Source: Geosiphon pyriformis uo1 (taxonomy: Eukaryota; Fungi; Glomeromycota). Taken from it: a DNA stretch of 64,000 bases. The notes under the pieces were generated by a model that saw only the letters and a program-made list of their open reading frames with translations, searched no databases and was not told the origin of the DNA. The position numbers and the translations under genes are program-made. Below are positions 22,518 to 56,325 of the stretch, piece after piece (within the stretch, counting starts at the first letter, position 1; every line of letters begins with the position of its first letter). The stretch covers positions 62,001 to 126,000 of the forward strand of contig JAAOMT010000518.1 in assembly GCA_016748015.1 (NCBI GenBank), given 5' to 3'.

Positions 22518-23489
22518 TGTTACCAGTAGAATTTTAGCTATTAATTAGCATGAAATTACCCTTATAATTCTTATTATTAACTAGCATATATTATTATTAT
22601 TTTAATTATTACTTATTATTTAATCAAATTATCAAATATCATTACTCAATCAATAATCCGATTTGTACTCTAGAAATTAAGATAATCAAATTACACAATA
22701 CTCTGAACCATTTAACATAGTCAAAATTCGCTGAAATTAATAAAAATTTACCGAAATAATCAATAAGTTCAGTGAAATAATTTGTAGTTCACCAAAATAT
22801 ACCTTTAGTTTACCCAAATTGTAGCAAAGAGAAAAGTGCAAGTTCAAAGACTAGTACTACAACAAATTGTATAAAAAAAGAGCTCCTTTCTTCAAGAAAA
22901 TGTATCTTCTCATAGTATCTTATCATAGCATTCTACTTTAGATATCTTAATTAAAACAAATCACCTTTTACACATTCAAATAAAAATTAAATATTCAAAA
23001 ACCAAATCTTTAAATTATTACACTTGAAATTCTCTCAACACAACTAACATTTTGAAATTGATTAGCTACCAATTTCAATAAACTGTTAGTGACTCCAGAC
23101 CTGAATAGAAAACGTTTCCCTTAACACAATTCTATTTTTTTTACATTTCTTTTATTTTCTTTCACTTTTCTCATCATAATTATTAGAGTAGCTTACAGAC
23201 AAGATTCCTGTAGAAGAGTTGACTTTCACAGCAAAGTAACTATACATTTTTAGTAAGCTTCCAGATAAGCAATTCCTGGAAAAGAGTTGATGTTTACTAC
23301 AATATAACTACACAAAATAACTAGCACAGAATTGGCCATTCTATTTATAAGCCTAGCAGTTCAAATTATAGGAGATAATTTGAAGATAAATTCAGTTACT
23401 GGAGGTCTAACTACTTCTTGAGAACATAAATTCACAGCAAATTAACAGTAACAACATTCAAGAAAAGAGACCAAAAACCTTCAGTAACA
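22518..23489 (+). repeat. 5' LTR, family A (972 bp)
   Basis: TGTTACCAGTAG...CAGTAACA; colinear with 41596-42560. Confidence 0.95.
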
Positions 23490-23491
23490 TT

Positions 23492-23507
23492 TGGTGCTCT
23501 TCTACAG
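23492..23507 (+). promoter_or_regulatory. Primer-binding site TGGTGCTCTT running into the acceptor-like TCTTCTACAG
   Basis: TGG lies 2 nt after the LTR CA; same TGGTGCTC core as family B. Confidence 0.75.
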
Positions 23508-24466
23508 AAATAACACAGTAATAACAACTTCAAAGTGATGACCATACCAGACACAACAACTTTAGAGTATTATCAGTCAATTTACATCCACTGCAAACAA
23601 AGATTTAACATCCCAGACAGAATTGAAGTTGTCAAAAAATCAGTATACCAATACATTGAAAACTGCATCAACAATTATTTTTTTGGAAACTACAACATTT
23701 CAGAAGTTAGAAGCAATCTCTACAACAATTTAGTGCATTATTCACAATTGGAAACAGAAAACCTGAACAGTCAAACTCTTGCAACCTACTTTCAAGAACT
23801 TAATTTTAACATTATTGAGTATTGTAAAGAAAAATACCCAGTCCAGTCCAAATACTCTCTCGACTTTAAATCAGAAACAGAAACAAGCAATAAAGACAAA
23901 CAAAAACAATACTCAAGAACCACCTTAAATACTCCAATACTACCAAAGACAACTGTCAAATACTTGCAAACACTTGAACAAGGAACTAGTGTCAAATTAC
24001 CACTTTTTATTACACCATTTTCAATTTCACTTGTTCGACCACAAACACCAAATTTACTACTTAACCATTTTTTCAGATCTGAAGATTTTCAGTCACCTAA
24101 AAATCCTACTTAACAGCAGGAACCCATATCAACAAACACCAATATTATTGATTATTTACAAGAAAACAAAAATAATCATTCAGAAAACTTGGAAAGTGAA
24201 AAAACTGAATCAGAGCAAGAAAAAACCACAGAAAATGAAGAAGAAATGACAACTGCTTACATTGAAAAGATCCTTGAATTCACTAGTAAAGACAATGATA
24301 CCAGTCCACAAGAATAGCTTGACAAAATTCAGAAAGCAAAAGATGCAAATAGTTGGAATACAGCAAGAATGTTCAAAGCAATCCCATACTTTCTCCAAAG
24401 AACTACAGAAAAATGATTTGAAAATTTAGAAGAACCATTTGAAAACTGGCAAGCATTCAAAGATGT
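23508..24466 (+). pseudogene. gag: Family A polyprotein 5' part: N-terminal extension and start of Gag (interrupted by the nested element)
   Basis: ORF 23535-24113, then KAIPYFLQ..FENWQAFKD, which resumes as AFLQQFTNNN after 34644. Confidence 0.85.
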
Positions 24467-25352
24467 TATTACTTATAGAAATAAAGGAAATATATTAGTC
24501 TAAATTTTTAGCCAATCAGAAGTAGACATAGTAAATATGAAATTCCAGGATTCCTCTCAGGAATTGCAGGATTCCAGGAATTTCAGGATTCCCTGATGAG
24601 GAATTACAGGATTCCAGAATTCCAGGATTCCTCTTAAAGGAATTACAGGATTCCAGGAATTCCAGGATTCCTGTCATGAAGAATTGAGGAATTGAGAAAT
24701 CTCAATTATGTATATATAGCAGTAGCGTTAGAAACAGAAAAGACAGAATTGATATCACAGAATCCTTAGCTTAGAAACGCAATCATCAAATAAATAATTA
24801 TTTCATATCTCAATCCACTCTTCACTATCAACTCTTTATGTTGATAGTAATTGATACTTAATCACACTAGAACAATAGCTCTTGATCACGGCTATTGACG
24901 GGATACTAATCTGCAAATCACCTTGGCTTATTTTTTTTCTTTCTTTATTTTCTTTTATTTCTTTTTTTTTATTTTATTTTTGATTTGTTGTTGTATACTA
25001 ATTGATTCAAGATTAAGCACTGAGTTATTGACGTCAAGAATAGCCTGGTAAAAGACCCAGAAATAAGGGTAGGATTTTATATATTATCAGATAGCTTACC
25101 AGAAGGGCACAACTGCTAGGCTAAATCTGGCCACCATGCTGAGAAAGAAATTGGGAAAACTCTTGGAAAATACATCTACTATTGACACTATTGAATCTCT
25201 GTTCATTATACAAAAGACTCAACCAAAATCTTCAGATCCATAAAAACCTTCAGATACAACACTTACAGAACTGCATCAACGGAAGTAGCTTTTGAGCACC
25301 AAGTTACGGGTTTGTTATTTAATTCCACAGCAGAAATAATTCACCTGTAACA
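24467..25352 (+). repeat. 5' LTR, family B copy 1
   Basis: Colinear with 33759-34644; ends CTGTAACA. Confidence 0.95.
24511..24720 (+). promoter_or_regulatory. Putative U3 promoter: CCAAT box, GGAATTCCAGGATTCC repeat array, TATATA box
   Basis: AGCCAATCAG at 24511, ~40-bp-period array at 24538-24672 and GTATATATAGC near 24710. The same order occurs in all four family-B LTRs. Confidence 0.6.
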
Positions 25353-25384
25353 TTTGGTGCTCTTTGTGAGGTATAATCCTACAG

Positions 25385-28300
25385 AGAACCAGCACTGACA
25401 ACACTAAACCAAAAGTGGCAGAATCAGAAAATATAGGAGCAAACCATTTAGAATTCGCAAAATCCTTATTTCAACACTATTGTCAATACTTGGAATTAAA
25501 CCACAATCATATATCTGCCGAATCAGTCTTCAATTTCTACGTCAACGAAAAGATTTCTTCTTTATTAGAAACACCAATGAATACTGAATCAGCAAGAGAA
25601 ACTTTCTATAGGGAATTAATTCAAAATACCAACCTGCCAACAAATCATAATTTCACATCCATTATCACTGAAATCAACAAAGAAATTGAACACCACACTC
25701 AACAAAGATATCCAATTACATATGCTAGTAAAGGCAAGAGAAAATTACAAACACCAGCAGTAACACCCAGAAAATTACAGCCACCTGCTTAGAAGAAAAA
25801 CAGAGTTGAATCCCCAAGCAACCCATCTTACCACTATATACCTGGAAGTGCCATCAACATATCATCAACCGATGCGTTCTCATCAACTACAACATCAGTA
25901 TTTGGACAATTCTCATTTCAAAGTAGACAAAAGAAAACAGAATTACTAGAACCATATGGTGAATACTTTGAGGAATTTAATTCGCGATCATCAACTTTAT
26001 CAGGGCTTTGATCACCACTGCCTCCACCAAATTTTGGAATCTCTGATCCGTGGAAAGCAGTGGAATCAGAAAAAGAGGAAAAAGAATCAGAAGATTAAGA
26101 ATTCACTTACCAGCATCTGATCACTGAAAACCTGGAAGTTGAAACCCCAAACATTCAAACTCAGCAACAGTTAGAAAATCCAAAAATCAAAACCCCGAAT
26201 ATTCGAATGTCGCCAAATCAAAGAAATCAAAACCCCGAATTAATTAATCAGCAAAACTTACCTCCAGTAATCGTCATCGATCAACTGCCAATTAATCCAG
26301 TAGCCAAACCCATACAACAGCCACTACAACTACCACCCAACACCCAGTACAACAACAACTGCTTCAACAGCCACCACAACCACCTAACTTAGATCCAATG
26401 ACCTATGCACCAATTGCAAAACTCGACAACTTTACTGGCAAAGAGGATGACACTCAAGTATGGCTGAACAATATAGAAAAAGCCATCGCAGCCAATGGAT
26501 GGAATGACGCCCAAGCAATGCAAGCCATTCCCTACTTTCTCAAGGATACTGCCAATTCATGATACCAGAGCTTGATTAATAAACCACAAGATTTTAATGC
26601 CTTCAAAGCGGAATTCCTAAGATACTTCAGCAACAATAACAGCATTAATCGCCTAGTCAATGCCTTCACTACCATGAAACAAGAAGAAACTGAAGCAGTC
26701 ACCACTTACTTGGGACGCTTCCATTGAAACCTATGCCAAATTCAAGCAATTGATGCCAACTATTTCACAGCACCACAGATACTCAATCAGTTTATCTGTG
26801 GCCTGCACAGCAGCATCTTGCAATATGTATGTCCATTGCATCCAGGTACCCTTCAAGATGCAGTTACATGCGCCAGAGATTTTGAATCCGCCAAGTCAGA
26901 GGCTAACCATGCCCAAGTCATTAATCTAGTAATGAATGGATTATCTGAATTGGATTCCAAATTGGAGAAGTTTAGTGAATCAATTAATAAGAGATTGGAA
27001 GGATACTTAGCTGACAATCATGCCCTTTATCAGCCTCCACAATGATACAATAATCAAGGAAACTCTAATCATGCCCAAAATCAACCTCATCCATCTTCAT
27101 CAACCAATCAACAGTGGCAACAGAAAATGTGTATCTGCCACTATTGTGGTAAGTAAGGACATATCCAAATGGACTGTCGCCAGCACCTAAATAACCAACG
27201 ATCGGGAAATCAATATTGAAACTCCAATTGCCGGTTCTAAACTCCGAATCAGTATCCAAATCAAAACCCACCCGCTTACCTACCAGTGATGCAGTCATCA
27301 GTCTATCAGTCTCCAGTATATTAACCTCTGATTTATCAACTGCAGCCACAAGTAATATATCAACCGCAGCCACAAATAATTTATCAACCCCAACAGATCC
27401 AAACACCGCCCCAAAACTTACCATCCAACGGAACCCAAAGACCGAGAATGACTCAACAGAGCTGGAGATCGGCGATAATAGTCCATCAACTGATCCTCAG
27501 TTCTTCACAGCAACCATCTGGATTATGCCAGCGGAATTCGGGTACTGGTCAACCCCAGAATCCGAATTCTCAGAACTATTTAAGTCTTCTGGTCACTCCA
27601 GAAGACACTTCAACCAATAACTCAGTACTTACTCAAAAACAACCACTTACCAGTAATATCCCATCTGCTACCATCACCGAAGACGAGTCATTAGCCACTA
27701 TTTTCCCATTCGAATTTGAGGAAACAGCTGCAACACCATTATTTAGTGGAGCCGCTCTTGAAGCCAAACCAATCACCACGATGTACACTAATGCCAAAGT
27801 TGAAGGACAATCCATCAAATTGATCTTGAACAGTAGTTCCACAGACAGCATAATCACAAAACAACTCATGGATCAATTAGGTTGCCAAGTTGATCGGGCT
27901 GCCAGTGCCAGAATCATCACAGCTGATGGCACGACCAAAACTCCAATTGGCAAAATTGACAACTTTCTTTTTGAAGTCAATGGCATCATGACTCCCATTA
28001 AAGTTCTAGTAATGGAAGCCACTTAATACCAAGCTCTCGTTGGTAATAACTGGCTATCCAAAGTCAACGCAACATTAGACTGGAACACCCAGGAACTCCA
28101 GCTAACATATCAGAGCCAACACATACATGTCCCAGCCACATGTGGCCACTTCAAAACTCCTCTAAGAAAGAAACTATTGATCAAACTGGAGGAGGAGAAA
28201 GAAAAGCCTACCTGGGAAGCCTACCAAGTGTTGTGGGTGGACGAAGACACAACAAACTACTGCCAATACTCTTCTGGGATGACAACAACAAGAGAAAAGG

Positions 28301-31300
28301 GAAACAAAAAGAAAAACTTACCTGGGAAACTGATAACCTAACATGAACCAACAACAATGAAAGTGAACCGACTTCAAGCTGGGAATAGGAAGAGAACAAA
28401 GAAAATAAAGGAAAAGGGAAAGAAGAAGAGACCACCCAAACTACCACCGCTTATACCACCTATACTATACCACAACAATCAACTTATCATCAATCTAAGC
28501 TTATATGTGTCAATTGTGGCAAAAAATTGTCATCGATGGGCGCATGCTATGGGGATGATGAGGAATATTCAATGGCAACTAGGTTCTATTGCCGTTCATG
28601 CGTCCTTGAACACTTTGGAAGATCAAAACAAGTAGGGAAATGTGACAATCAGCCGTGCTTAGCTTGTGGAGAGACTTTATTGGATGAAAGAATGTGGCAT
28701 GACATTCCTGGATGTGGAGGAACGTGCGACGTAGAGTGTCAATACACAATTCTGATCAGCGACTGGATTAAAAAAGGGACACCAATCAAAGCCGCTTGGC
28801 AAAGAGCAGTGTGACAATTAGACAGTTGTCCACATGATGACGACAAAATTTGGAGAATGACAACTGCCAAAATTGAAGGCATGTTGCCAGAAGAAATCTG
28901 GACAATTAAAAACAACCCACCAGAACCCATCGAGCTTGACTGGAACACAGAGCCAGTCATAAATTTTCTGGAACCAGAAGAGTTTCATGAACACTACCAA
29001 AACTTGGCACCTACTAGAGAAGAGCAAGAACAACGGCTAGCACAGTTAAATACAAAACTGTGTCACCATTGTTTAATTCCCAGTGACTTTGAATATTGTG
29101 ACAATTGTGATCTTCTTTATAATCCACTACCACACATGATCTATTCAATCCCTGAAGAAGAAGAACCAATCAGCAGCTGTGCATTAGAATCAGAATCACT
29201 GATCAATTGTGATCCAGACTCTGACGATGATGACAAAAACACCAGTTCCAGCTCCATTCAAAATGGCAATGATGATGAAAATGATTCAGACTCAGATTCA
29301 AAACCCAATGTAAACTATGAACAATACATTGCATTACCAGATTTCTCCAAGGAACAAGAGTTGAAATGGTATAGTGACAATAGAGAAAATATTATGCCAG
29401 AACATGCACATGATACAGATGCAGGGTTTGATTTGAGATATCCAGGAAAAGATGCCATCAAATTGAAACCGCATTCACACACCTGTATTGATCTGAAAAT
29501 AGCACTAGAGATTCCAGCAACAACAATGGTTCAATTAGCATCTAGGAGTAGTTTAGTGAAAAGAGGGATCAATATAAGAGAAGGAATAATTGATGCGGGA
29601 TATGTGAGAAATATCATCACCATGCTACAAAATGACTCAGAAAAGGCCTATATAATAGAGTCCAATGAAAAGATAGCACAGGCAATATTCCTGCCTCTGA
29701 TTAGAATAGCTCAGTTAGTGTCAGTGGGAAAGAGGGAGAAATTAGGAATAACAGCAAGAGGAATACAAGGATTTGGATCAACAGGTAGAATAGATACACC
29801 AGTTAATATGGCAGAGGAAGAAATTGTTGGCCAAGGAGAAATTATCTCAACTGGTCAAGCTATTTCCATTCCATCATATAGCCAGTACATGTTAACAATA
29901 GAAAAGAAGGAAAAGGAGCAAGAACAGATTTTTGAAGCTGAAGCAACCCTTTGTGAATCAGGAGAGATTGGATTGATCAATCTCCACATACCAGCCAAAA
30001 GCTATAGCAGCATAAAAATTCCTATTTACAACAATACTGGCAATGTCATCAACATACCAGAAAGAACCACCATCAGATATTTAACCACAGAAATAGAAGA
30101 CTAACCACCAAACCCCATTCCAGACTTTTCACAACTTTGTGGATATGTTGACATCACATCACAAACAATCTATGGACAAGATGAATGTTATTTGCTCCAA
30201 TCAGAACAATTGGAACAAATGAACATGGGGAACTTAGATTCACTCCAACGTATGCAGCTTAAGATGTTACTCAACAATTTCAATGACATCTTTGCCAACA
30301 AAAATGAGTTTGGCCAAACTAACATCATCCAACATCAGATCAAGACTGGAGATGCAATGCCAATCAAACAAAGAGCATACAGAGTGCCGCCAGCCAGCCA
30401 CGAGATTATTTGTCAAGAGATAAACAGAATGCTTGACAACAGGCTAATTCAACTATCAATAAGTCCATGGTTGTCACCAGTGGTACTCATCTGTAAGAAA
30501 AATGGAAAAATCCGGTTTTGTGTAGACTACAAGAAACTCAATGGTGTAACTCATGGAGACAGTTATCTAACTCCATGGATACAGGAATTATTTGATGCTT
30601 TCGGTGGGAACAAATGGTTCTCCACATTAGATTTGAACAGTGGTTACTGGCAAGTAGCCATGAATTCAGTTGACAAAGAGAAGACAGCATTTACTACTAG
30701 AGAAGGGAATTTCGAATTTGAAGTAATGCCATTCAGCTTAACCAATGTCCCAGCAACTTTCCAATGGCTAATAGAAATTGTTTATACAGGCTTATTGTGG
30801 AAATCAGTAGTTGTATACTTGGATGACACCAATGTATTCTCAAAGATGTTCGATAATTATCTGCATTATTTTCAACAAGTGTTCGAAAGACTAAGAAGAA
30901 CAGAACTAAAGTTAAATGCGACAAAGTGCTTCTTTGGCAAGACAGAACTCAAATTCTTGGGACACATAGTCAGTAAAAATGGCATCAAAACAGATCCAGA
31001 GAAAATAGAGATAGTAAAGAACTTTCTAGTGCCGACCAATATAACAGAACTGAAATCATTCTTGGAATTTGCCAGCTACTATTGTCGTTTTATCAAAAAC
31101 TTTTTCAAGATAGTGCAGCCACTCAATCAATTGTAAAACAAAAATGCGAAATATGAATGGACAGAAAGTCAACAAGAAGCTTTTAATATTTTGAGAAAAA
31201 AGCTCATCCAAGCTCCAGTACTGATCTATTCAGATTACAGCAAACCATTCATCATCACCACTGATGCATCCAGCCAAGCATTGGGAGCAGTATTATCTCA

Positions 31301-31619
31301 GAGAGGACCAGACAGCAGAGAACATTCAGTAGCATATGCCAGCAGAGGTTTAACACCAGCTGAAAAGAACTATGGAACACCAGAACAAGAACACTTAGCA
31401 ATATACTGGGCCATTATGAAATGGAAAGAATACTTGAGCCAGAAATTCGAAGTATACACAGATCACAAAAGATTAACATCACTCCAAAAACAAGAATTTG
31501 GAGATAGAAGACAGTCAAGATGAAAAATAGCACTTGCACCATACAATTATAATATACATTACAAAAAGAAAAAAGACAATAGAAATGCTGACAGTTTGTT
31601 GTAAATGAGACAAATCTAA
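25385..31619 (+). pseudogene. gag-pol: Family B copy 1 polyprotein (~2080 codons): N-extension, Gag with CCHC, protease, Cys-rich domain, dUTPase, RT, RNase H
   Basis: Gag: APIAKLDNFTG..ANGWND..QAIPYFL and CHYCGK*GHIQMDC. PR: LILNSSS (DSGS in copy 2). RT: RFCVDYKKLN, LDLNSGYWQ, YLDD. RH: TTDASSQALGAVLSQ, YASR, YTDHK. Only two 1-nt indels are needed to join the frames. Confidence 0.93.
29394..29786 (+). pseudogene. dut: dUTPase domain within the retrotransposon polyprotein
   Basis: All five trimeric dUTPase motifs: AGFDL, SRSSL, GIIDAGY, EKIAQ, RGIQGFGSTG. Confidence 0.95.
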
Positions 31620-31681
31620 GAACATTTCAACCCAAAAATATAACAAAACCAGAACAATACCAACGAAAAATATAACAAAAA

Positions 31682-33060
31682 ATGAACATACAAAAATACC
31701 AACAATTACAACATTATATAAACACTCAACAGTTCAAGGAGAATTTATCTCAAACAGAACGAAAGAGTATCAAACAACAATCAAAATATTTTATCACTCA
31801 CCAAAATATACTTTATCGGAAAAATAAAAGGAATTCAAATCAACCAACCAGAGTAATTACAGAGCCAGAAAAAGGGATCATATTATTCAAGATGCACTCA
31901 AATCCAACAGCAGGACATTTTCACAAAGAAGCAACCATGGAAAGAACCAGAAAGAGATACTATTGGTCATTAATATACCCAGACATCATTCAATATGTGC
32001 AAAATTGTGATGCATGTTAGCGAAGAAGAGGAACAAGACCCAGTGAACTATTAAGACCAATCAAAGTGGGACAACTATTTGACCACATTGGAATTGATTT
32101 AGTTGGACTATTAACAATCACCAGCAGAGGAAACAAATACATAGCAGTAGCTATGGACTATCTCACTAAATGGCCAGAGGTGAAAGCAATTCAAAGAGCG
32201 GATGCAGAATCCGTTGTCGAATTCATTCATCAAGATTTGATTTGTCGACATAGATGTCCAAAAGAATTATCAGACCAAGGAACTCATTTTGTGAACAAAA
32301 CATTAATAGAATTAAGCCAAAGATTCGGAATCAAGAGACCATTATTATTACCATACCATCCATAAACCAACAGATTAGTAGAAAGATTCAACAGAATATT
32401 ATGTGAAGCAATAACTAAACTCAGTCAAGAAAACCAGAACGATTGGGATTTGTTGATACCATCAGTACTATTTGCTTATCGGACAATGAAGCAAGATACT
32501 ACACAAGCAACACCATTTGAATTAGTATATGATAGAACAGCAACACTACTTATAAAAATGGAAGTCAGCACATACCCAACTGAACCAATAACAGAAGAGA
32601 ATTTTAAAAATATATTGTTGAGAGAACATATGACTTAATAGAAACATTGGAAAACAAACAAAGAAGAGCAGCTGATAATATCCAAAAGTCACAAGAAACA
32701 CAGAAAAAAAGACATAATAGTCAACTACCAGACAAACCAGTTGAATTCAAGATCAGAGACAAAGTATTACTACATTGTACCAAAGTGGAAAAACAATGGA
32801 GTGGAAAATTTGACCCCAAATAGGACAGACCATTTCACATAGAAGAAATTCTAGGAAATGGAGCTTACAAATTAAGATTGAATAACAAAATTTTAACCAA
32901 AGCAGCACATGGAGATCGACTGAAACTATATCACAAGATTACACTACCATCTATCAGTAATATTCCACAATTAGGAATACAGAGAATACTAGTTCAACCG
33001 GATGAGATTCCACGAGATCTGGAACCAATCATTATTATTGACAACAACACATTAAATTGA
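31682..33060 (+). pseudogene. Integrase as a separate ORF (HHCC, DDE, GPF; no chromodomain)
   Basis: MHSNPTAGH..CDAC; GIDLVG, LSDQG, LVERFN; PFHIEEILGNGAYKL; own ATG at 31682. Confidence 0.9.
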
Positions 33061-33084
33061 TCCATCAAAAGAATATATAAAGAC

Positions 33085-33744
33085 ATGGTAGACACAACAG
33101 GAAATGTCAGAAAAATGGAAATTACAGACAACATTCACTCACTAGCACAACAACTTTTTCAATTAATCCAACACCAGGAAATGGAGATTACAATCAATCA
33201 ACAAACTATTTGATATCAAGATACTAGAAAAATATTTCAATTCAGAACACAGAAGAAAACTGAAAATTCTGTGGACAAAATCATGGCGAAAGTAAAATTA
33301 GCAATAAAAGAGTTGATAAAAGAGTCACTATATCAAGAGTTGACTAATGAAACTTGGAATTGGTGGATACAACAATTTCCACGAAACTATTGTTATTTTT
33401 ACTTGGGACAACACATAAATATCCAGAATCTATATACGGATAAGACAAAGCAATTATTTGACAAAAGAATACTACTACAATTAGAACATTTTGTGGGAAA
33501 AAACAACTTATCTACACAAGCCCGAGCCATCTACCGAATACACACAGCATTTCAGGATAGACCAGAGATATTGCTCAACAAAGCAATGGATATGGTTACC
33601 AGTAATCAATTGAGAAAAATCACCAATGCTCAATTTGAAAAATTACAGACCCAAATAACACAAGTAATTCTCGAAAACGAAATCCAGAAAATACTTTAAG
33701 AAAAGGAATTACATGAGTTGGATTTTGATGAAGCTCAATATTAA
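33085..33744 (+). pseudogene. Extra 3' ORF (ORF3, 219 aa) of unknown function at the env position
   Basis: ATG 33085 is in frame with ORF 33271-33699. The internal stops are CGA>TGA/CAA>TAA type (copy 2 retains CAA at the latter). It ends LDFDEAQY* next to the PPT. Confidence 0.8.
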
Positions 33745-33758
33745 AAAGAAGGGAATAA

Positions 33759-34644
33759 TATTACTCATAGAAATAAAAGAAATATATTAGTCTAAATTTT
33801 TAGCCAATTAAAAGCAGACATAGTAAATGTGGAATTCCAGGATTCCTCTCAGGAATTACAGGATTCCAGGAATTTCAGGATTCTCCGATGAGAAATTACA
33901 AGATTCCAGAATTTCAGGATTCTTCTCAAAAAAATTACAGGATTCCAGGAATTCTAAGATTCCTGTTATGAAGAATTGAGGAATTGAGGAATCTCAATTA
34001 TGTATATATAGCAGTAGCGTTAGAAACAGAAAAGACAAAATCGATACCACAGAATCCTTAGCCTAGAAATGCAATCATCAAATAAATAATTATTTCATAT
34101 CTCAATCCACTCTCCACTATCAACTCTTCATGTTGATAGTAATTGATACTTAACCATGCTGGAACAATAGCTCTTGATCACAGCTATTGATGAGATACTA
34201 ATCTGCAAATCGCCTTGGCTTATTTCTTTTCTTTCTTTATTTTCTTTTATTTTTTTTTCTTTATTTTATTTTTGATTTGTTGTTGTATACTAATTGATTC
34301 AAGATTAAGTGCTGAGTTATTAATGTCAAGGATAGCCTGGTAAAAGACCCAGAAATAAGGGTAGGATTTTATATATTATCAGATAGCTTACCAGAAGGGC
34401 ACAACTGCCAGACTAAATCCGGCCACCATGCTGAGAAAGAAATTGGGAAAACTCTTGGAAAATACATCTACTATCAACACTATTGAATCTCTGTCTATTA
34501 TACAAAGGACTCAACCAAAACCTTCAGATCCATAAAAATCTTCAGATACAACACTTACAGAACCACATCAATGAAAGTAGCTTTTAAGCACCAAGTTACA
34601 GGTTTGTTATTTAATTCCACAGCAGAAATAATTCACCTGTAACA
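33759..34644 (+). repeat. 3' LTR, family B copy 1
   Basis: Preceded by the PPT; same length as the 5' LTR. Confidence 0.95.
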
Positions 34645-39335: not shown

Positions 39336-39391
39336 CACCACCAACAAATCCATTACAACTTACTACTACTAACAAAAACAACAAAACAACA

Positions 39392-41584: not shown

Positions 41585-41595
41585 GAAGGAGATTA

Positions 41596-42560: not shown

Positions 42561-42564
42561 ATGT

Positions 42565-46100: not shown

Positions 46101-46220
46101 ATGATATTTTTTCATTGTAATATATACTGTTTAGTAAAAAGTATTTAAATAGTGCCATAAAAATTTGGTAGTGTTCATAGTTTCACAAAAAAATGATTTA
46201 TGTATATATTTTGAGACCAT

Positions 46221-47091
46221 TGTTACAGATGAGTGTTTTTGCTGTTGAATTAAATAACAAACCTGTAACTTGGTGCTCAAAAGCTACTTCCATTAATGAG
46301 GTTCTATAAGTGTTGTATCTGAAGGTTTTGGTAAAGTCCTTGGTATAATGGACAGAGATTTAATAGTTGTTTATCCATAGTTTTTCAGACTCGCAAATCT
46401 GTCAATTTTTTTTTCAGCTTGGTGGCCGGCAATCTTTTGGTAAGTAATCTGTATCTCTTGTACGTGTCCTACCCTCTTGCAGAGGTCTTTTACCAGGCAA
46501 TCCTTGACATCAGTAATTAGCACTTTCAATTAATTAGTTAGTACATAATAACAAAATCACAGAAAATAAAATAAAGAAAGAAAAAAAAAATAAAAGAATA
46601 AAAAAAAATAAGCCAAGATGATTTGCAAGTTAGTATCTCATCAATAGCTATGATCAAGAACTATTGTTCCAGTGTGGTTAAGTATCAATTACTATCAACA
46701 TGAAGTGTTGATAGTGGAGAATGAGTTTGAGATATATAATAATTATTTATTTGATGATTAGAACTGGAATGTTGCTTAGATTAAATCTAAACTGAGAGGT
46801 CTGCCTCTTTTCAGCTTCTAATTTTACTGCTATATATACATAATTGAGATTCCTCAATTCCTCAATTCTTTGCAACAAAAATCCTGGAATTCTTGGAATT
46901 CTGCAATTTTTAGTGAGAAAAATCCTGAAATTCTGAAATCTTGCAATTCCTTGTCAGAGAATCTTGAAATTCCTGGAATCCTGCAATTCCTCTAAGAGGA
47001 ATTCTGGAATTTCACATTTATTATGTTTACCTCTGATTGGCTAATATCTATTGATTAATAATACTATATTTTCTATATTCTATAAGTAACA
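46221..47091 (-). repeat. 3' LTR, family B copy 2 (871 bp)
   Basis: TG..CA termini; PPT AAAAGAAGAGAA adjacent on the minus strand. Confidence 0.95.
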
Positions 47092-47104
47092 TTATTCTCT
47101 TCTT

Positions 47105-47764
47105 TTAATATTGAGCTCTGTCGAAATCCAATTCATTTGATTCTCCTTCTTGAAGTATTTTCTGAATTTTATTGTTGAGAATCACTTGTGTTATTTGAGT
47201 CCGTAATTCTTTAAATTGAGCATTGGTAATTTTTCCCAATTGATTATTGGTAACTGTATCCATGGCTTTATTGAGTAGAATTTCTGGCCGATCCTGAAAT
47301 GCTGTGTGTATTTGATATATAGCTCAAGCTTATGTGAATAAGTTGTTTTTCCCCACAAAATGTTCTAGTTGTCATAGTATTGTTGTGTTGAATAACTGCT
47401 TTGTTTTGTCCATATATAAGTTCTGGATATTTACATGTTGTTCCAAGTAAAAATAACAATAGTTTCTTGGAAATTGTTGTATCCACCAAGTCCAAGTTTT
47501 TCTGATAAATCTTTGGTGTAATCCGACTACTTGTTGTTCTTTTATGGCCAATTTTATCTTGGTCATGATCTTGTTGACCATGTTTTTCAGTCTTTTCTGT
47601 GCTTTGTTTTGTGGTATTTTTGCTGTATTTTTGTAACAAATGGTTTGTCAATTGATGATAATTTCCATCTCTTGGTGTTGGATTAATTGAAAAATTTGTT
47701 GGGCTAGTGAATAGATATTGTCTATAATCTCTATTTTTCTGCTTTTCTCTGTCATGTCAACCAT
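47105..47764 (-). pseudogene. ORF3 of family B copy 2
   Basis: Same 660-nt span as copy 1; WTWWIQQFPRNYCYFYL; ends LDFDRAQY*. Confidence 0.8.
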
Positions 47765-47787
47765 GTTCTTATATATTCTTTTGTCAA

Positions 47788-49169
47788 TCAACTGGACATT
47801 TTGTTGTCAATGATAATGATTGGTTCCAGATCTTGTGGAATCTTCTTTGGTTGGACTAGTATTCTCTGTACTCCCAATTGTGAAATATTACTGATAGATG
47901 CTGATGCTATATAGTGATATGGTTTCAGTCGATCTCTATATGCTGCTTTGGTTAAGATTTTGCTGTCCAATCTTAATTTGTAAGCTCCATTTCCTAGAAT
48001 TTTTTCTATGTGAAATGGTCCGTTCCATTTGGGGTTAAATTTTCTATTCTATTGTTTTTCCGCTTTGGTATGATGTAATAGTACTTTGTCTCCAATCCTG
48101 AATTCAACTGGTTTATCTGGTAGTTGGTTATTGTGTTTTTTTTTTGTTTCTCTTGTGCCTTTTGTATGTTATTAGCTGTTCTTTGTCGTTTGTTTTCTAA
48201 TGTTTCCATTAAGTCATATGTTCTTCTCAACAATGTATTTTTGAAATTCTCTTCTGTTATTGGTTCAGTTGGGTATGTGCTGACTTCTATTTCTACTGAT
48301 AGTGTTGCTGTTCTACCATATACTAATTCAAATGGTGTTGCTTGTGTAGTGTCTTGCTTCATTGTCTGATAAGCAAGTAGTATTGATGGTATTAACAAAT
48401 CCTAATCATTCTGGTTTTCTTGGCTGAGCTTAGCTATTGCTTTACACAATGTTCTATTGAATTTTTCGACTAATCCATTGGTTTGTAGATGATATAGTGA
48501 TAATAATGGTCTTTTAATTCCAAACTTTTGGCTTAGTTCTGCTAATGTTCTATTCACGAAATGGGTTCCTTGGTCTAATAATAGTTTTTTTGGACATCCA
48601 TATTGACAAATCAGATCTTGATGGATGAATTCGGCAATGAATTCTACATCTGCTCTTTGAATTGCTTTTGCTTCTGGCCATTTAGTGAGATAGTCCATGG
48701 CTACTGCTATGTATCTATTTCCTCTGTTGGTAATTGTTAATGGTCTGACTAGATCAATTTCCACATGGTCAAATGGTTGTTCTACTTTGATTGGTTTTAA
48801 CGGTTCACTGGGTTTCGTACCTTCTCTTTGCTGACAAGCATCACAATTTTGAACATATTGGATGATGTCTGAATACATTGATGGCCAATAGTATCTTTTT
48901 TTGGTTCTTTCCATGGTTGTTTCTTTGTAAAAATGTCCTGTTGTTGGATTTGAGTGCATGTTAAATAATATTGTCTTTTTTTTTGGTTCTGTAATTACTC
49001 TGGTTGGTTGATCTGGATCTTTTCTATTTTTCCGATAAAGTATATTTTGGTAAGTGATAAAATATTTTAATTGTTGTTTGATACTCTTTCATTCTATTTG
49101 AGATAAATTTTCTTTGAACTGTTGAGTGTTTATATAATGTCGCAGTTGTTGATATTTTTGTATGTTCAT
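47788..49169 (-). pseudogene. Integrase, separate ORF, family B copy 2
   Basis: ORFs 48402-48959 (HHCC, IDLV, LDQG, NGLVEKFN), 48006-48398 and 47788-47970; ATG at 49169. Confidence 0.9.
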
Positions 49170-49230
49170 CTTTTGTTATATTTTCGTTGGTATTGTTCTG
49201 GTTTTGTTGTATTTTTGTGTTAAAATGTTC

Positions 49231-52200
49231 TTAGATTTGTCTTATTTGCGACAAATCATCAGCATTTCCATTGTCTTTTTCTTTTTTGTAATGGGTAGTA
49301 TAATTGTATGGTGCAAGTGCCATTTTCCATTTTAACTGTCTTTCATCTCCAAATTTTTGTTTTTGGAGTAATGTTAATCTCTTGTGATCTGTGTAGACTT
49401 CAAACTTTTGGCTCAAGTATTCTTTCCATTTCATGACTGCCCAGTATATTGCTAAGTGTTCTTGTTCCAGTGTTGTATAGTTCTTTTTGGCTGGTGTTAA
49501 ACCTTTACTGGCATATGTTACTAAATGTTCTCTGCCATCCAGTCCTCTTTGAGATGGTACTGCTCCTAATGCTTGGCCAGATACATTAGTGGTGATAATG
49601 AATGGTTTGCTGTGATCTGAATAGATCAGTACTGGAGCTTGGATAAGCTTTCTTTTCAGAATATCAAAAGCTTCCTGTTGACTTTCTGTCCATTCATATT
49701 TTGTATTTTTGTTTTGCAGTTGGTTAAGTGGCTGTGCTATCTTGGAAAAGTTCTTGATAAAATGTTGATAGTAACTGGCGAATCCCAAAAATGATTTCAG
49801 TTCTGTCATATTGGTCAGCACTAGAAAGTTCTTTACTATCTCAATTTTCTTTGGATCTGTTTTGATGCCATCTTTTTTGATTATGTGTTCCAAGAATTTT
49901 AGTTCTGTTTTGCTGAAGAAGCACTTTGTCGCATTTAACTTTAGTCCTGCTCTTCTTAATCTTTCGAACATTTGTTGAAGATAATAGAGATGATCATCAA
50001 ACATTTTTGAGAATACATTGGTGTCGTCCAAGTATACAACTACTGATTTCCACAACAAGCCAGTATAAATGATTTCCATTAGCCATTGGAAAGTTGCTGG
50101 GGTATTGTTTAAGCCGAATGGCATCACTTCAAATTCGAAATTCTCTTCTCTAGTAGTAAATCTCATTTTCTCTTTGTCAGCTGGATTTATGGCTACTTGC
50201 CAGTAACCACTGTTTAAATCTAATGTTGAGAATCATTTGTTTCCACCAAAAGCATTAAATAATTTTTGTATCTGTGGAGTTGGATAGCTGTCTCCATGAG
50301 TTACACCATTGAGTTTTCTGTAGTTTACACAAAATCGGATTTTTCTATTCTTCTTACGGACGAGTACCACTGGTAATGACTATGGGCTCATGGATGGCTG
50401 AATTAGCCCATTGTCAAGCATTCTGTTTATGTCTTGATAAATGATCTTATGGCTGGCTGGTGGCACTCTGTATGCTCTTTGTTTGATTGGCATTACATCT
50501 TCAGTCTTGATCTGATGCTGGATGATGTCAGTTTGGCCAAACTCATTTTCACTGGCAAAGATGTCATTGAAATTGTTAAGCAATATTTTGAGCTGCATAC
50601 ATTGGAGTGGATCTAAGTTTCCCATGTTCATTTGTTCCAATTGTTCTTATTGGAGCAAATAACATTCGTCTCATCCATAGATTGTTTGTGATGTAATGTC
50701 AACATATTCACAAAGTTGTGAAAAGTCCAGAATGGGTTTTGGTGGTTGGTTTTCTATTTCTGTGTTTAAATATCCAATGGTGATTCCTTCTGGTATGTTG
50801 ATGACATTGCCAGTGTTGTTGTAGATGGGAATTTTTATGCTGCTATAGCTTTTGGCTGGTATGTAGAAGTTGATTAACCCAATCTTTCCTGATTCACAAA
50901 GATTTGCTTCAGCTTCAAAAATTTGTTCCTGCTCTTTTTCTTTTCTTCCTATTGCTAGCATGTACTCACTATATGGTGGAATGGAAATAGCTTGACTGGT
51001 TGAGATAATTTCTCTTTGGTCAACAATTTCTTCTTCTGCCATATTAACTAGTACATTTATTCTACCTATTGATCCAAATCCTTGTATTCCTTTCGCTGTT
51101 ATTCCTAATTCCTCCCTCTTTCCTACTGATACTAACTGAGCTACTCTAACCAAAGGCAGGAATATTGTCTATGCTATCTTTTCGTTGAGCTCTATTATAT
51201 AGGCTTTTTCTGAGTTATTTTGTAACATGGCGATAATATTTCCTATATATCCCATGTCAATTATTCTTTCTCTTATATTAATCCCTCTTTTTGCTAAACT
51301 ATTTCTAGATACTAATTGAACTATTGTTGTTGCTGGAATTTCTAGTGCTATTTTCAGATCAATGCAGGTGCATGAATGTGGTTCTAATTTAATGGCATCT
51401 TTTTCTGGGTATTTCAAATCAAACCCTGCATCAGTATCATGCACGCATTCTGGCATGATACTTTTCCCCTTGTCACTATATCATTTCAACTCCTGCTTCT
51501 TGGAGAAATCTGGTAGTGCAATATATTGTTTGTAGTTTGTATCAGAGTTTGGATCTGAGTTGGAATCATTGTTGTTGTCATTGCCATTTTGAATGGAGCT
51601 TGAACTGTTGTTGTTGTTGTTGTCATTGTCGGAGTTTGAATCGCGATTGATCAGCAATTCTGCTTCTGATGTACAGCTACTGATTGGTTCTTCCTCTTCA
51701 AGGATCATGTAGATCATGTGTGGTGGTGGATTGTAAATGAGGTCACACTCATTACAATATTCAAAGTCACTGAGAATTAAACAATGGTGATACAGTCTCA
51801 TATTTAACTGTGCTAGCTATTGTTTTTGCTTTTCTCTAGTGGGTGCCAAGTTTTGGTAGTGTTCATGGAACTCTTCTGGTTTCAGAAAATTTATGACTGG
51901 CTCTGCATCCCAGTCAAGCTTGATGGGTTTTGGTGGGTTGTTTTTAATTGTCCTGATTTCTTCTGGTGTTGCTTCTTCTATTTTGGCAATTGCCATTCTC
52001 CAAACTTTGTCATTATCATGTGGACAACTGTCCAGTTGCTACACAGCTCTTCTCCAGGCTGCTTCTATTGGGGTTCCTTTCCTTATCCAGTCACTTATTA
52101 GAATTGTGTATTGACATGATATGTCGCATGTTCCTCCATGTCTTGGAATGTCGTTCCACATTCCTTCATCTAACAGGGTCTCTTTACAAGCAAGACAAGA

Positions 52201-55200
52201 CTGGTTATCCCATTTTTCTTGCCTTTTTGGTCTTCTAAAGTGTTCAAGTAAGCATGGACAACAGTAAAACTTTGTGGCAGCATGGTATTCCTCATCATCA
52301 TCACAGCATGTGTCCATCGACAACAGTTTCTTACTGCAATCGACGCATACAAGCCTTGGCCACCGATAATTGGATTGTGGCGAAGTGTAGTGGATGTAGA
52401 AATTATAAATGCTAACAGTTGGTGTTGTTCTTTCTTCCTTTTTTTTTCCTTTTCTCTTATCTTCGTTCTATTCCCAACTTAAGGCTTCTTCTTGTTCGTT
52501 ATCAGTCCAAGTCAGATTGTTAGTTTCTCAGGTAAGTTCATTTGTTTGCTTTCTTTTTCCATTGTCGTCCCACAAGAGTATTGGTGGCAGCTCATTGTGC
52601 TCTTTGTCAGCCCATGACATTTGGTAGACTTCCCAGGTAGGTTTTGGTTTCTCTTTTTTGAAGTTGATTAATAGTGTCATAGTGTTGGTAGCCTTAAAGT
52701 GGCCACATGTTGCTGGTACTTGCATGTGTTGCCCGTTCTGGCTGAGTTGAAGCTCTTGGGTATTCCAGTCCAGAGTGGTATTCATCTTGGACAACCAGTC
52801 ATTACCAACTAGAGCTTAGTATTGGGTGGCTTTTATGATGAGTACTTTGATTGGTACTATGATGCCGTTAATTTCAATTAGTAAGTCATCAATTTTGCTG
52901 ATTGGAGTCTTGGTTGCTCTATTAGCCGTAATGATTCTGGCATTAGCAGCTCGATCAACTCGGCAACCTAATTGATCTATGAGTTGTCATGTGATAATGC
53001 TACTTGCTGAACCACTGTCAAAAATTAGTTTGATGAAATGGCCATCAATTTTCGCATCAGTGTACATGGCAGTAATTGGTTTTTCTTCCAGTATAGCTCT
53101 ACTGAATAATGGCATGGTTGTTAGTTCCTCGAGTTTGAATAGAAAAATGGCATCCAGAGATTTGTCTTCTGTGATTGTGGCAGGTAGGATGTTGTTGGTA
53201 GGTGTTTGTCCGAGTTCCTGGTTGTTGGGTGTGGCATCTTTTGAAGTAACCAGGAGACTTAAATAGTTTTGGGAATTTGGGTGTTGGGTGGCACTGGTAC
53301 CTGAATTCCGAGAATGGGATCCTGAGCTTTGGTGAGAGGAACTGGGAATCGGTTGATGAACAACCATCACCGATCTCCAATTTTGAGCAATTCTGGGTTT
53401 CGAGTTTCCTGATGTCATCGTAGCTGAGTTTTGGAGTGGTGTTTGGATTAATGGTTGAGACTGATAAATTATTTGGGACTGTGGCTGATAAATTACTGGT
53501 GGCTGTGGTTGATAAACTGGGGTTTGATATACTGGCAGTTGATAGATTGGTTGCTGCGTTATTGGCAGGTAAGTATTTTGATATTGATCTTGATCCTGAT
53601 TTGGATAATGATTTGGTGATTGGGGTTTCTGTATTGATTTTCTGATCATTGGTTACTATAAGTATGGCAATTAACTCGAATATGGTCTTGTTTTCCACAG
53701 TTGTGGCAGACACACGTTTCTGGTTGCCACGGTAGACTAGATGCTGTCAAGGATGATGAACGTAATTGATTTTGGAAATGATTCGCATTTCCTGGATTAT
53801 GGTGTCGTTGTAGTGTTTGATATATGGTGCAATTGTCAGCTAAGTATCTTTCCAATCTCTTATTAATTGATTTACTGAACTTCTCCAATTTGGAATCCAA
53901 TTCAAATGATCCGTTCATTACTAGATTAATGGCTTGGACATGGTTAACCTCTGACTCAGTGGATTCAAAATCTCTGGTGTGTATGACTGCATTTTGAAGA
54001 GTGCCAGGATGCAATGGACGTACATGTTGCAAGATGCTGCTGCATAGGCCACGAATAAACTGGTTAAGTATCTGTGGCGCTGTGAAATAGTTGGCATTAA
54101 TTGCTTGAATTTGGTGTAGGTTTCGATGGAAGCATTTCAGGTAAGTGGTAACTGCTTCAGATTCTTCTTGTTTCATGGTGGTGAATGTATTGACTAGGTG
54201 ATTGATGCTGTTATTGTTGCTAAAGTATCTTAGGAATTCCATTTTAAAGGCATTGAAATCTTGTGGTCTATTAACCAAGCTCTGATACCATGAATTGGCA
54301 GTATTCTTGAGAAAGTAGGGAATGGCTTGCATTGCTCAGTTGTTATTCCATCTGTTGGCTGTGATGGTCTTTTCTATATTGTTCAGCCATACTTGAGTGT
54401 CATCCTCTTTACTAGTAAAGTTGTCAAGTTTTGCAATTGGTGCATAAGCCATTGGATCTAAGTTAGATGGTTGTGGTGGCTGTTGAAGCAGTTGTTGTTG
54501 TACTGGTTGTTGGGGTGGTAGTTGAAATGGCTGCTAGATGGGTTCGACTATGGGATTAATAGGTGGTTGATTGATAACAATTACCAGAGATAAGTTTTTC
54601 TGATTAATTAATTCAGGGTTTGAATTGTCCTGTCTTTGATGATTTGGAGTTTCAATTTCCAAATTTTCTAGATTTAGATTTTGCTGAGTTTGAAGATTCG
54701 GGGTTTCAACTTCCAGGTTTTCAGTGATTGGGTGCTGGTAAGTGAATTCTTGATCCTTTGATTCTTCTTCCTCTTTTTCTGACTCTGCTGCTTCCCACAG
54801 ATCAGAGATTTCAAAATCTGGTAGAGGCGGTAGTGATCAAAGTTCTGATGAAATTGATGATTGTGAATTAAATCTCTCAAAGTATTCGCCATATGGTCCT
54901 AATAATTTGGTTTTCCTTTGTTTACTTTGGAATGAGAATCATCCAAATGCTGATGTCGCAGTTGATGGAAACGTGTCTGTTGATAATATGTTGATGGCGC
55001 TTCCAGGTGTATAGTGGTAGGATGGGTTGCTTGGGAATTTAATTCTGTTTTTCTTCCAAGTAGGTGGCTGTATTTTTCTGGGTGTTACTGCTGGTGTTTG
55101 TAGTTTTCCCTTGCCTTTACTAGCATATGTAATTGGATATCTTTGTTGAATGTGGTGTTCAATTTCTTTGTTGATCTTAGTGATGATGAACACAAAATTA

Positions 55201-55463
55201 TGATTTGTTAGTAGATTGGTGTTTTGAATTAATTCCCTATAGAAAGTTTCCCTTGCTGATTCAGTATTTACTAGTGTCCCTAACAAAGAGAAAATTTTTT
55301 TGTTGATGCAGAAATTGAAGGCTGATTCGGCAGATATATGATTGTGGTTTAATCCCAAGTATTGACAATAGTATTGAAATAAAGATTTTGCAAATCCTAA
55401 ATAGTTTGCTCCTATATTTTCTGATTCTGCCACTTTTGGATGGTGTTTGTTGGTGCTGGTTCT
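49231..55463 (-). pseudogene. gag-pol: Family B copy 2 polyprotein (N-extension, Gag, PR, Cys-rich, dUTPase ~51065-51456, RT, RNase H)
   Basis: CHNCGKQDHIRVNC; LIFDSGSASSII; DAGFDL..GIQGFGSIG; YLDD; YTDHK; ends LSQIRQI*. Confidence 0.93.
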
Positions 55464-55494
55464 CTGTAGAATTATACCTCACAGGAGCACCAAA

Positions 55495-56325
55495 TGTTAT
55501 AGGTAAGTGTTTCTGCTGTTGAATTAAATAACAAACCTGTAACTTGGTGCTCAAAAGCTACTTTCATTGATGAGGTTCTGTAAGTATTATATCTGAAGGT
55601 TTTAGTAGAGTCCTTTGTATAATGGACAAAGATTTAATAGTTGTTTATCTGTAGCTTCCTAGACTCACAAGTCTGTCAATTTTTTTTTCAGCTTAGTGGC
55701 CGGCAATCCTCTGGTAAGTAATCCATATCTCTTGTATATGTCCTACTCTCTCGCAGGGGTCTTTTACCAGGCAATTCTTGATGTCAGTAATTAGCACTTT
55801 CAATTAATTGGTTAGTGCACAATAACAAAATCACAAAAAATAAAATAAAGAAAGAAAAAAAAAATAAAAAAATAAAAGAAAATAAGCCAAGGTGATTTGC
55901 AAGTTAGTATCTTGTCAATAGCCATGATCAAAAGCTATTGTTCTAGCATGGTTAAGTATCAATTACTATTAATATGAAGTATTGATAGTGAAGAGTGGGT
56001 TTAAGATATAGAATAATTATTTATTTGATTATTGGAACTAGAATGTTGCTTAGATTCAATCTTAACTGGGAGATCTGCCTCTTTTTAGCTTCTAATCTTA
56101 TTGCTATATATACATAATTGAGATTCCTTAATTTCTCAATTCTTTGCAACAGGAATCCTGAGATTTCTGGTGAGAAAAATCCTAGAATTCTGGAATTCTG
56201 TAATTCCTCGTCGGAGAATTCTGAAATTTCTGGAATCTTGGAATTCCACATTTACTATGTCTACCTCTGATTGGCTAATATCTACTGACTAATAATACTA
56301 TATTTTCTATATTCTATGAGTAATA
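55495..56325 (-). repeat. 5' LTR, family B copy 2 (831 bp; U3 array contracted)
   Basis: 40 bp shorter than the 3' LTR, with the losses inside the GGAATTCC array; followed by PBS TGGTGCTCCTGTGAGG. Confidence 0.93.

Follow-up and report, generated by a model that had tools for sequence, protein, structure and literature searches.

In long terminal repeat (LTR) retrotransposons and in retroviruses the integrase (IN) reaches the particle as part of a polyprotein. Fungal surveys describe Ty3/gypsy elements with one Gag-Pol open reading frame (ORF) or with two (gag and pol), and in the available portions of these surveys the integrase lies inside pol (PMC2864245, PMC3248453); the same placement is given in the accessible text of PMC2774666 and PMC5911963. 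A dUTPase between protease (PR) and reverse transcriptase (RT) is described, in the parts of the sources at hand, for the Postia PosPlaTy3-5, Phanerochaete and Tuber (Tmt1) elements (PMC2864245), for rotifer Juno, Vesta and TelKA (PMC5408684) and for planarian Burro (PMC6431247). Coupling of a downstream gene to an upstream stop is known from the UAAUG of the non-LTR retrotransposon SART1 and from the stop-start overlaps of caliciviruses and influenza B, and reinitiation of the TURBS (termination upstream ribosome-binding site) type tolerates a stop-start distance of 20-30 nt, according to the available part of PMC10275272. For Geosiphon pyriformis, the accessible sections of PMC11952901 state that LTR elements cover 41.2% of the genome and report LTR expansion without element anatomy, and the accessible text of PMC12543289 makes no mention of Geosiphon. 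Here we describe three LTR elements in 64,000 nt of G. pyriformis uo1 (GCA_016748015.1, contig JAAOMT010000518.1, positions 62,001 to 126,000; the window), in which the integrase has an ORF of its own and is followed by a third, ORF3.

Three-ORF anatomy in the window and in relatives

Three decayed LTR elements, A, B and C, were delimited in the window by self-BLAST and junction alignments. Element A (22518-42560, +) carries element B (24467-34644, +) nested within its gag, and excision of B in silico rejoins the Gag frame of A across a 4-bp duplication; element C (56325-46221) is on the minus strand. B and C belong to the same family (81% DNA identity over 10.3 kb). DNA similarity between A and B/C is confined to RT-RNase H (RT-RH) and IN (63-68%), and the self-BLAST of the window reported no match between the LTRs of A and those of B/C. 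An earlier reading of the sequence alone had likewise seen three elements from two families with unrelated LTRs and diverged proteins. Although there are three elements, the independent sample within the window is two families.

In all three copies the frame that contains RT ends at a TAA after RNase H, and this stop falls at the equivalent alignment position in A, B and C (Table 1). The integrase start position is also aligned across the three, reading ATG in B and C and ATA in A, and in both B and C a further in-frame stop lies two codons upstream of the ATG. ORF3 follows the integrase, after approximately 160 nt in A, and is 25% identical between the A and B families over 99 aa (E 2e-6). 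The layout proposed by the sequence-only reading, in which an ORF running from an N-terminal extension through Gag, PR, a CxxC domain and dUTPase to RT-RH is closed by a stop and followed by integrase, ORF3 and the polypurine tract (PPT), was seen in A, B and C. These comparisons show a three-ORF anatomy that is conserved across two families and in the intact relatives described below, and we regard the three-ORF architecture as very probably correct.

Six-frame translations, Pfam and pairwise BLASTP gave a shared order for the first ORF of N-extension, Gag, CCHC knuckle, protease, CxxC domain (210 aa), dUTPase, RT and RNase H. Pfam matches in B were Retrotrans_gag/Ty3_capsid, gag-asp_proteas, dUTPase, RVT_1 and RT_RNaseH, and in C, the Gag of which was left out of the scan, the last four of these; Integrase_H2C2/rve was found in A, B and C. 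The dUTPase match has an E value of 1e-16 in B and 3e-13 in C. BLASTP of A against B gave 41% identity for Gag, 54% for PR, 31% for the CxxC domain (E 9e-32), 51% for dUTPase, 49% for RT-RH and 46% for IN. The N-extensions were not significantly alike by BLASTP (E 1.3) and were related by profile-profile comparison (P 73%, E 3e-5). The elements keep the Ty3/gypsy order PR-RT-RH-IN, with a gypsy-type RNase H and an H2C2/DDE/GPY-F integrase, and all three show the further hallmarks of direct LTRs with TG...CA ends, a primer-binding site (PBS), a purine tract before the 3' LTR and a 4-bp target duplication. The integrase sequence matches Ty3-G Gag-Pol (E 6e-18), and the foamy virus integrase is among its top PDB matches (E 3.5e-18). 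No chromodomain was detected, the C-terminus of the B integrase matching SH3_Tf2-1 alone in Pfam. By eye, the interval between dUTPase and RT in B (29790-30120) resembles a second, degenerate dUTPase-like beta domain, with no Pfam match.

No copy in the window is intact, A being interrupted by in-frame stops and B and C by frameshifts. The first ORF of A contains 39 in-frame stops over ~1,870 codons and no frameshift, and its 3' part has 36 stops in the coding frame against 79 and 126 in the other two. Because A lacks a frameshift and those of B and C lie at differing places, a single ORF1 is the simplest reading, and Gag through RNase H can be deduced to form one first ORF of ~1,870-2,060 codons.

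The paired LTRs differ almost exclusively by transitions (83/83 substitutions in A, 60/60 in B and 88/93 in C). The C/T and G/A changes occur in all dinucleotide contexts, and CpG stands at 0.12-0.34 of expectation. This looks like hypermutation resembling repeat-induced point mutation, or driven by methylation, in a Glomeromycotina fungus, and as nearly all changes are transitions the LTR divergence is unsuited to dating. Between B and C, synonymous/non-synonymous transversions number 20/12 in PR, 16/17 in the CxxC domain (p 5e-7), 9/7 in RT-RH (5e-5), 6/2 in the IN core (1.5e-4) and 14/27 in ORF3 (1.2e-4); the synonymous share expected among transversions is 11-14%, and all five excesses have p ≤1.5e-4. 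As far as substitution counts can tell, they show that purifying selection on the integrase, ORF3 and the CxxC domain preceded decay.

Other copies were sampled in run X1. At the B junction 4802 contigs aligned, and the best 40 of 109 variants included none at the stop after RNase H, none at the further in-frame TAA and none at the ATG; at the A junction 1079 aligned, with none at the RNase H stop among the best 40 of 55. The A spacer is the least conserved stretch among these copies, depth falling from ~360,000 to 5,800, and a 1-nt deletion is present in 32% of the depth. No contig of runs X2 and X3 matched at the B junction.

Relatives were sought with the dUTPase-RT-RH region, which gave 2085 matches; the best 120 comprised 52 Geosiphon proteins and 68 others. 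On the split side of the tree lay 24 of the 68, none with an integrase Pfam match. Most of these end 1-25 residues past the last RNase H motif and eight have a tail of 160-350 aa; a few may be ended by contig edges. Cluster members terminate at an identical residue in many assemblies. Among 30 clusters looked up, the one named member outside Geosiphon records is P0258, from Cetraspora pellucida. A metagenome scan with an alignment of such split-side proteins found 574 loci, and the best 80 were analysed: 35 are fused, 18 cleanly split, 8 broken or ambiguous (L066, L072 and L078 were classed as broken by hand, the break falling within a canonical integrase) and 19 uninformative. The integrase thus lies outside the Pol polyprotein, behind a stop after RNase H, in 3/3 window copies and in 18 of the 53 clearly scorable loci. 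All 18 have a stand-alone integrase with its own Met, a residue that opens the N-terminal helix of the enzyme in every case, and stand-alone integrase proteins of 405-426 aa were found for each of ten looked up, in clusters of 2-91. The sequence-only reading had advised a search for intact copies in other Glomeromycota/Mucoromycota; intact relatives are present among these environmental loci (e.g. L001, L003 and L008). At 9.7 kb, L001 seems to be an entire element without damage.

RT-RH trees were built from retrieved sequences, with 35 split rows and either 35 or 34 fused ones. The label switches two times on them, compared with a mean of 23 after shuffling, and A and B/C form a branch (SH-aLRT 95-96). 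When the split rows were kept as one group, the resulting tree was more likely than the free quick tree and is not rejected (p-AU 0.77); a single origin of the split elements is allowed by these data. All were quick trees; L047, which is undecidable, was left out of one, and the integrase of L006 is not covered.

ORF3 was found in five of the six split loci that reach far enough (L001, L002, L003, L008 and L033); in L016 the integrase runs directly to the PPT and LTR, and the ORF3 profile matched no ORF of the fused loci. In leave-one-group-out searches of 1178 sequences the ORF3s of L001, L002, L003 and L008 recover one another at E 1e-10 to 1e-20, and that of L033 is recovered weakly (E 0.014). 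L001 also has a coiled-coil-like ORF of 284 aa between integrase and ORF3 (7404-8255). With the ORF3 of B as query, 106 matches were returned, all of them Geosiphon pyriformis hypothetical proteins (best 89% identical), which points to this fungus as the most likely host; more than 100 such entries would be remnants of a transposon ORF3. A profile built from Geosiphon ORF3s alone had 114 matches among 1.84 billion proteins, including the intact P0385 and P0388 outside Geosiphon records.

The accessory domains are distributed differently. The dUTPase, CxxC domain and N-extension of the window match no ORF of the 80 loci, and none of the 11 split loci that span PR-RT has a dUTPase. Among the proteins, P0205 is intact, is not labelled as Geosiphon and has the PR-CxxC-dUTPase-RT order of the window (CxxC profile E 4e-63), and P0113, P0116 and P0286 have a dUTPase without the CxxC domain. 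On this distribution the stand-alone integrase is a lineage-wide trait, and the CxxC-dUTPase block and the window N-extension are a sub-lineage addition. Gag and Pol form a single ORF in L003 and L008 and lie in different frames in L001, L014, L020 and L033. The sequence-only reading had taken the whole plan as one ancestral three-ORF unit and not as decay. This stands for the stop behind RNase H, for the integrase as a gene apart and for ORF3, which are best read as inherited since the stop is aligned in two families, the stops lack listed variants, transversions show a synonymous excess and intact relatives exist; it does not extend to the accessory-rich ORF1, to a uniform joining of Gag and Pol or to an invariable ORF3.

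Several points qualify this account of a shared, inherited design. A stop common to B and C proves nothing by itself, as shared stops could arise by decay. The integrase start of A is ATA in ~75% of the X1 depth and ATG in ~25%, and run X1 may be the window's own sample, though it contains other copies. Gag, dUTPase, the N-extension, the stretch after dUTPase and the IN C-terminus have too few transversions or no synonymous excess. On free trees the split group needs two changes and the root branch is weak, and the query used to retrieve the loci was itself derived from split elements. The two sets of ORF3 are loosely linked: Geosiphon-type ORF3s rank next to the L001/L002/L003/L008 group weakly (E 0.004-0.36, with best values of 0.004-0.03, 1178 sequences), and profile-profile comparison with these shorter ORF3s gave P 21% and E 1e-3.

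Other features of the relatives were noted. Nucleotide-sanitising enzymes recur in the split lineage at differing positions: P0143 has a NUDIX domain before PR, P0141 a dUTPase after RNase H, and others a dUTPase between PR and RT. One sub-clade (P0147, P0151, P0154, P0155, P0164, P0171 and P0224; L003, L008, L011 and L012) combines a long acidic Cys/His-rich tail after RNase H with a different CxxC-bearing N-extension on Gag; a search of viral contigs with P0155 found nothing. L010 carries a 161-aa ORF between RNase H and integrase (1590-2072).

Expression of the integrase and ORF3

A lineage without integrase in its polyprotein must have another route to make and package this enzyme. We favour, with a probability of roughly 0.55, production of the integrase and ORF3 from the full-length RNA by termination-reinitiation. 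ORF1 would be processed by the protease that it encodes, giving Gag, PR, dUTPase and RT-RH. Some of the terminating ribosomes would cross a short unstructured spacer, or a stop-start overlap, and begin the integrase and then ORF3, and the integrase would enter the particle in trans, probably by binding to Gag or to the genomic RNA. As ORF1 encodes both Gag and RT, reinitiation would keep the integrase at a lower level than Gag with no need for frameshifting. A likely role of the dUTPase is to limit uracil in the cDNA, as is assumed for other dUTPase-bearing retroelements.

Junctions were measured in 17 of the 18 clean split loci (L033 was left out). Six are stop-start overlaps of -1 to -14, that of L001 being of the UAAUG type, and the other 11 are gaps of 5, 30, 48, 62, 63, 72, 74, 76, 93, 98 and 524 nt, the last containing an extra ORF. 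Phases 0, 1 and 2 are represented by 5, 6 and 6 junctions. This range of distances and phases speaks for coupled termination-reinitiation as the simplest reading. The stop-start distance is within the TURBS limit in 8/17 loci (-14 to +30).

Some of these data sit uneasily with reinitiation. The window spacers (56-62 nt), and those of at least 48 nt in 9/17 relatives, exceed the 20-30 nt of TURBS-type tolerance; the 18S-complementary TURBS core motif was found within 100 nt upstream in none of the three window copies and in 1/17 loci; and ATGs occur inside 3/17 spacers. As the window gaps are longer than the TURBS limit, the process would rather resemble reinitiation across a spacer, of the kind known for LINE-1 ORF2.

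The same anatomy could instead be served by spliced subgenomic mRNAs for the integrase and ORF3, like those of env genes, which we consider rather unlikely. The available part of PMC5408684 indicates that LTR retrotransposon ORF3s are typically expressed from spliced messages, the window spacers are long for classical stop-restart, and a hairpin motif in five loci (see below) has at its end an unvarying CAG, a short distance before the ATG of the integrase. Against this, the A spacer has neither an AG nor a pyrimidine tract, and since it lacks any AG a splice acceptor there is disfavoured; the A/B/C alignment shows no conserved acceptor; and the overlap of start and stop in 6/17 relatives is not needed for splicing.

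Internal initiation of the integrase independent of ORF1 translation, from a spacer resembling an internal ribosome entry site or from an internal promoter, is quite improbable. It would suit a 38-nt motif that forms a covarying hairpin and is found between RNase H and integrase in one sub-clade (L003:4464-4500, L007:2799-2835, L008:5193-5229, L011:3298-3335 and L012:2238-2274), which lies 3-32 nt upstream of the integrase ATG in L003, L008, L011 and L012 and before a Met codon in L007. Nine pairs are kept in 45/45 cells and three show double changes, with 0/500 shuffles scoring as high, in five related sequences from which the structure itself was drawn. Rfam gave no match on the motif in L003, L008, L011 and L012, with two chance-level matches elsewhere, and viral contigs contained no exact match. 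The motif could be an initiation element, a splice signal or a ribozyme. The window spacers are also G-poor and unstructured, which we take to be typical of some translation enhancers. However, the hairpin motif occurs neither in the window nor in any of the remaining 75 loci, and the stop-start overlaps suggest coupling.

A programmed frameshift or readthrough that fuses RT-RH to integrase at low frequency, so that the integrase is still cut from a polyprotein, is very improbable. The -1 frame of A is open from 39311 into the integrase, and the integrase frame opens before the stop in overlapping relatives. In three relatives an in-frame UGA-CUA, presumably a readthrough context, lies between protease and RT (L013:3290, L016:1585 and L019:902), so the lineage may use recoding. 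Readthrough or a single fixed frameshift is nevertheless disfavoured because the 17 junctions vary from overlaps to gaps in all three phases, with spacers of 56, 62 and 61 nt in the window, and because an in-frame stop precedes the ATG of B and C, with no variant there among the best 40 of 109 at the B junction; the Met at the start of the integrase N-terminal helix is also retained throughout.

It is hardly tenable that decay of hypermutated copies produced the split and ORF3. In favour of this idea, the copies are full of transition-made stops, the LTR pairs differ nearly only by transitions and B and C have two internal stops in common (the B-C alignment between CxxC and RH has 16 stop positions, 13 of them seen in a single copy and three in both, the third of these being the terminal stop). 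Intact split loci, L001, L003 and L008 among them, refute it, and ORF3 was under purifying selection and has the intact homologues P0385 and P0388.

The ORF3 proteins are ~140-240 aa long and have a pI above 8 in 9/11 cases. No transmembrane segment was found in any of 11 proteins (top 19-residue hydropathy 0.27-1.29), and Pfam on 49 members gave scattered weak matches, with no family and no env, esterase or exonuclease. An envelope function was rejected on the first of these results and on the lack of an env family. A structural model from 49 sequences has a pLDDT of 77 and a confident helical core (an earlier one from 8 sequences was poor, pLDDT 54). It matched no fold in the PDB and viral libraries (best Foldseek E 0.45 and 0.23), the best VIA result being Z 4.9 with an rmsd of 3.0 over 64 aligned, and an atlas search with the homologue P0297 gave a best score of 0.87 and no usable lead. 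On this model ORF3 is a soluble helical protein; the absence of a fold match does not make its fold new. For a mostly basic protein without a membrane segment, the most likely role is that of a soluble helper that binds nucleic acids. A part in expressing or packaging the downstream genes is a guess, possible and on the doubtful side.

A more far-reaching version, which is distinctly unlikely, would be an ancient, undescribed gypsy lineage of arbuscular-mycorrhizal-type fungi with a polycistronic genomic RNA. Reinitiation or internal entry would yield an integrase that is packaged in trans, an ORF3 of new fold would drive this much as the reinitiation transactivator does in caulimoviruses, and in one sub-clade the integrase AUG would be preceded by a small structured RNA of a new class. 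A lineage with the integrase outside its polyprotein would provide an example of polycistronic translation from an LTR element in a fungus, and intact loci such as L001 and L008 make the mechanism directly testable. Pipelines that require a continuous RT-RH-IN frame would call intact members defective.

Coordinates and other features of the window

Table 1. Positions of the features of elements A, B and C within the window.
Feature	Positions	Strand	Remarks
A 5' LTR (TG...CA)	22518..23489	+	LTR pair 90.7% alike
A target duplication, 4 bp	22514-22517 and 42561-42564		copies differ by one transition
A primer-binding site	23490..23499	+	10 nt identical after 5' LTR of B (25353) and C (55494)
A ORF1, 5' part	23538..24462	+	ATG, N-extension, start of Gag capsid; cut by element B
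A ORF1, 3' part	34645..39335	+	single frame, 36 in-frame stops; stop TAA 39333-39335
A ORF1 domains	Gag; CCHC knuckle ~35142; protease ~35757-36128; CxxC ~36333-36956; dUTPase ~37092-37490; RT-RNase H ~38037-39329
A RH-IN spacer	39336..39391	+	56 nt; no G, no AG, no predicted structure
A integrase ORF	39392..40758	+	start reads ATA; frameshifts in 3' part
A ORF3	40921..41612	+	one frameshift near 41080-41100; reads through polypurine tract into LTR; start inferred from database relatives
A 3' LTR	41596..42560	+	polypurine tract ~41583-41592 just before
B 5' LTR	24467..25352	+	LTR pair 93.2% alike
B target duplication, 4 bp	24463-24466 and 34645-34648
B ORF1	25430..31619	+	two frameshifts, scattered stops; stop TAA 31617-31619; start codon not identified
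B ORF1 domains, 5' half	N-extension ~25430-25770; Gag 26398-26970; knuckle ~27133-27180; protease 27775-28150
B ORF1 domains, 3' half	CxxC 28494-29159; dUTPase 29388-29789; RT-RNase H 30330-31616
B RH-IN spacer	31620..31681	+	62 nt, A/C-rich, unstructured; in-frame TAA 31673-31675, two codons before integrase ATG
B integrase ORF	31682..33060	+	own ATG, H2C2, DDE core, GPF/SH3 module; one frameshift near 32630
B ORF3	33085..33744	+	~219 codons; ATG 24 nt past integrase stop; stop codon abuts polypurine tract
B 3' LTR	33759..34644	+
C 5' LTR	55495..56325	-	LTR pair 84.8% alike
C target duplication, 4 bp	56326-56329 and 46217-46220
C ORF1	49231..55418	-	same domain series; one frameshift past knuckle; stop TAA 49233-49231
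C RH-IN spacer	49170..49230	-	61 nt
C integrase ORF	47788..49169	-	own ATG at 49169; one frameshift near 48130
C ORF3	47105..47764	-	ATG 23 nt past integrase stop
C 3' LTR	46221..47089	-

The 4-bp target duplications begin with ATG at all three insertions, which suggests a target-sequence preference, from three sites only. The primer-binding site begins 2 nt past the LTR in the window elements, as in L003 (6735) and L016 (4890), and that of the window may resemble the 3' end of a eukaryotic tRNA-Ile. The U3 of the B/C LTRs contains short tandem repeats that are partly self-complementary (24541-24698). Element C was inserted into an AT-rich repeat (43389-46217 and 56321-56459), a second copy of which lies at 56995-59616, and an LTR fragment of family A is present at 59922-60003. 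A decayed LINE-like element at ~15000-21860 (-), in which ORF1, endonuclease, RT and RNase H were recognised by eye, has a truncated relative at 11443-13409 (-), 69% alike. A 1.87-kb tandem duplication of 99.8% identity (1743-3611 and 3649-5516) is either a very recent event or an assembly artefact.

Comparison with known systems

What is new here is the stand-alone integrase plus ORF3; a dUTPase between PR and RT is already published. The suggestion that the layout had not been described as a unit is consistent with the literature searched, which contained no clade of LTR elements whose integrase has an ORF to itself (the search did not reach GyDB, REXdb, Repbase, Dfam or supplements), and has to be given up for the dUTPase. 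The elements share with canonical Ty3/gypsy elements (Metaviridae, e.g. Ty3) the LTRs, PBS, PPT, CCHC Gag, PR-RT-RH-IN order and H2C2-DDE-GPF integrase, and differ in that the integrase is outside the Pol frame and a conserved non-envelope ORF3 follows it. They differ from errantivirus-type env-bearing gypsy elements in an ORF3 without transmembrane segment or env homology, and from chromoviruses in that the B integrase has no C-terminal chromodomain.

Gypsy elements with a dUTPase, compared by description only, have this enzyme in the same place, between protease and RT, and the rotifer Juno, Vesta and TelKA elements additionally carry an extra zinc knuckle and diverse ORF3s, as far as the available text of PMC5408684 goes. 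In the accessible descriptions their integrase is part of pol, whereas the window elements have it apart, lack a chromodomain and have an ORF3 without Pfam, env, esterase or exonuclease match.

SART1, hypovirus CHV1 (PMC2699510, available in part) and the TURBS viruses resemble the split elements in that the downstream enzyme gene has an AUG of its own, which overlaps an upstream stop or lies close to it. L001 has a SART1-like UAAUG overlap. The split elements differ from these termination-reinitiation systems in that it is RNase H and integrase that are parted, in an LTR element, with a window gap of 56-62 nt and no TURBS core motif. Foamy viruses make Pol from its own spliced mRNA and package it in trans, and here too an enzyme must be packaged unfused to Gag. 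In foamy viruses, however, all of Pol is apart from Gag and the integrase is kept in Pol, whereas in the elements described here RT stays with Gag and the integrase alone is separate.

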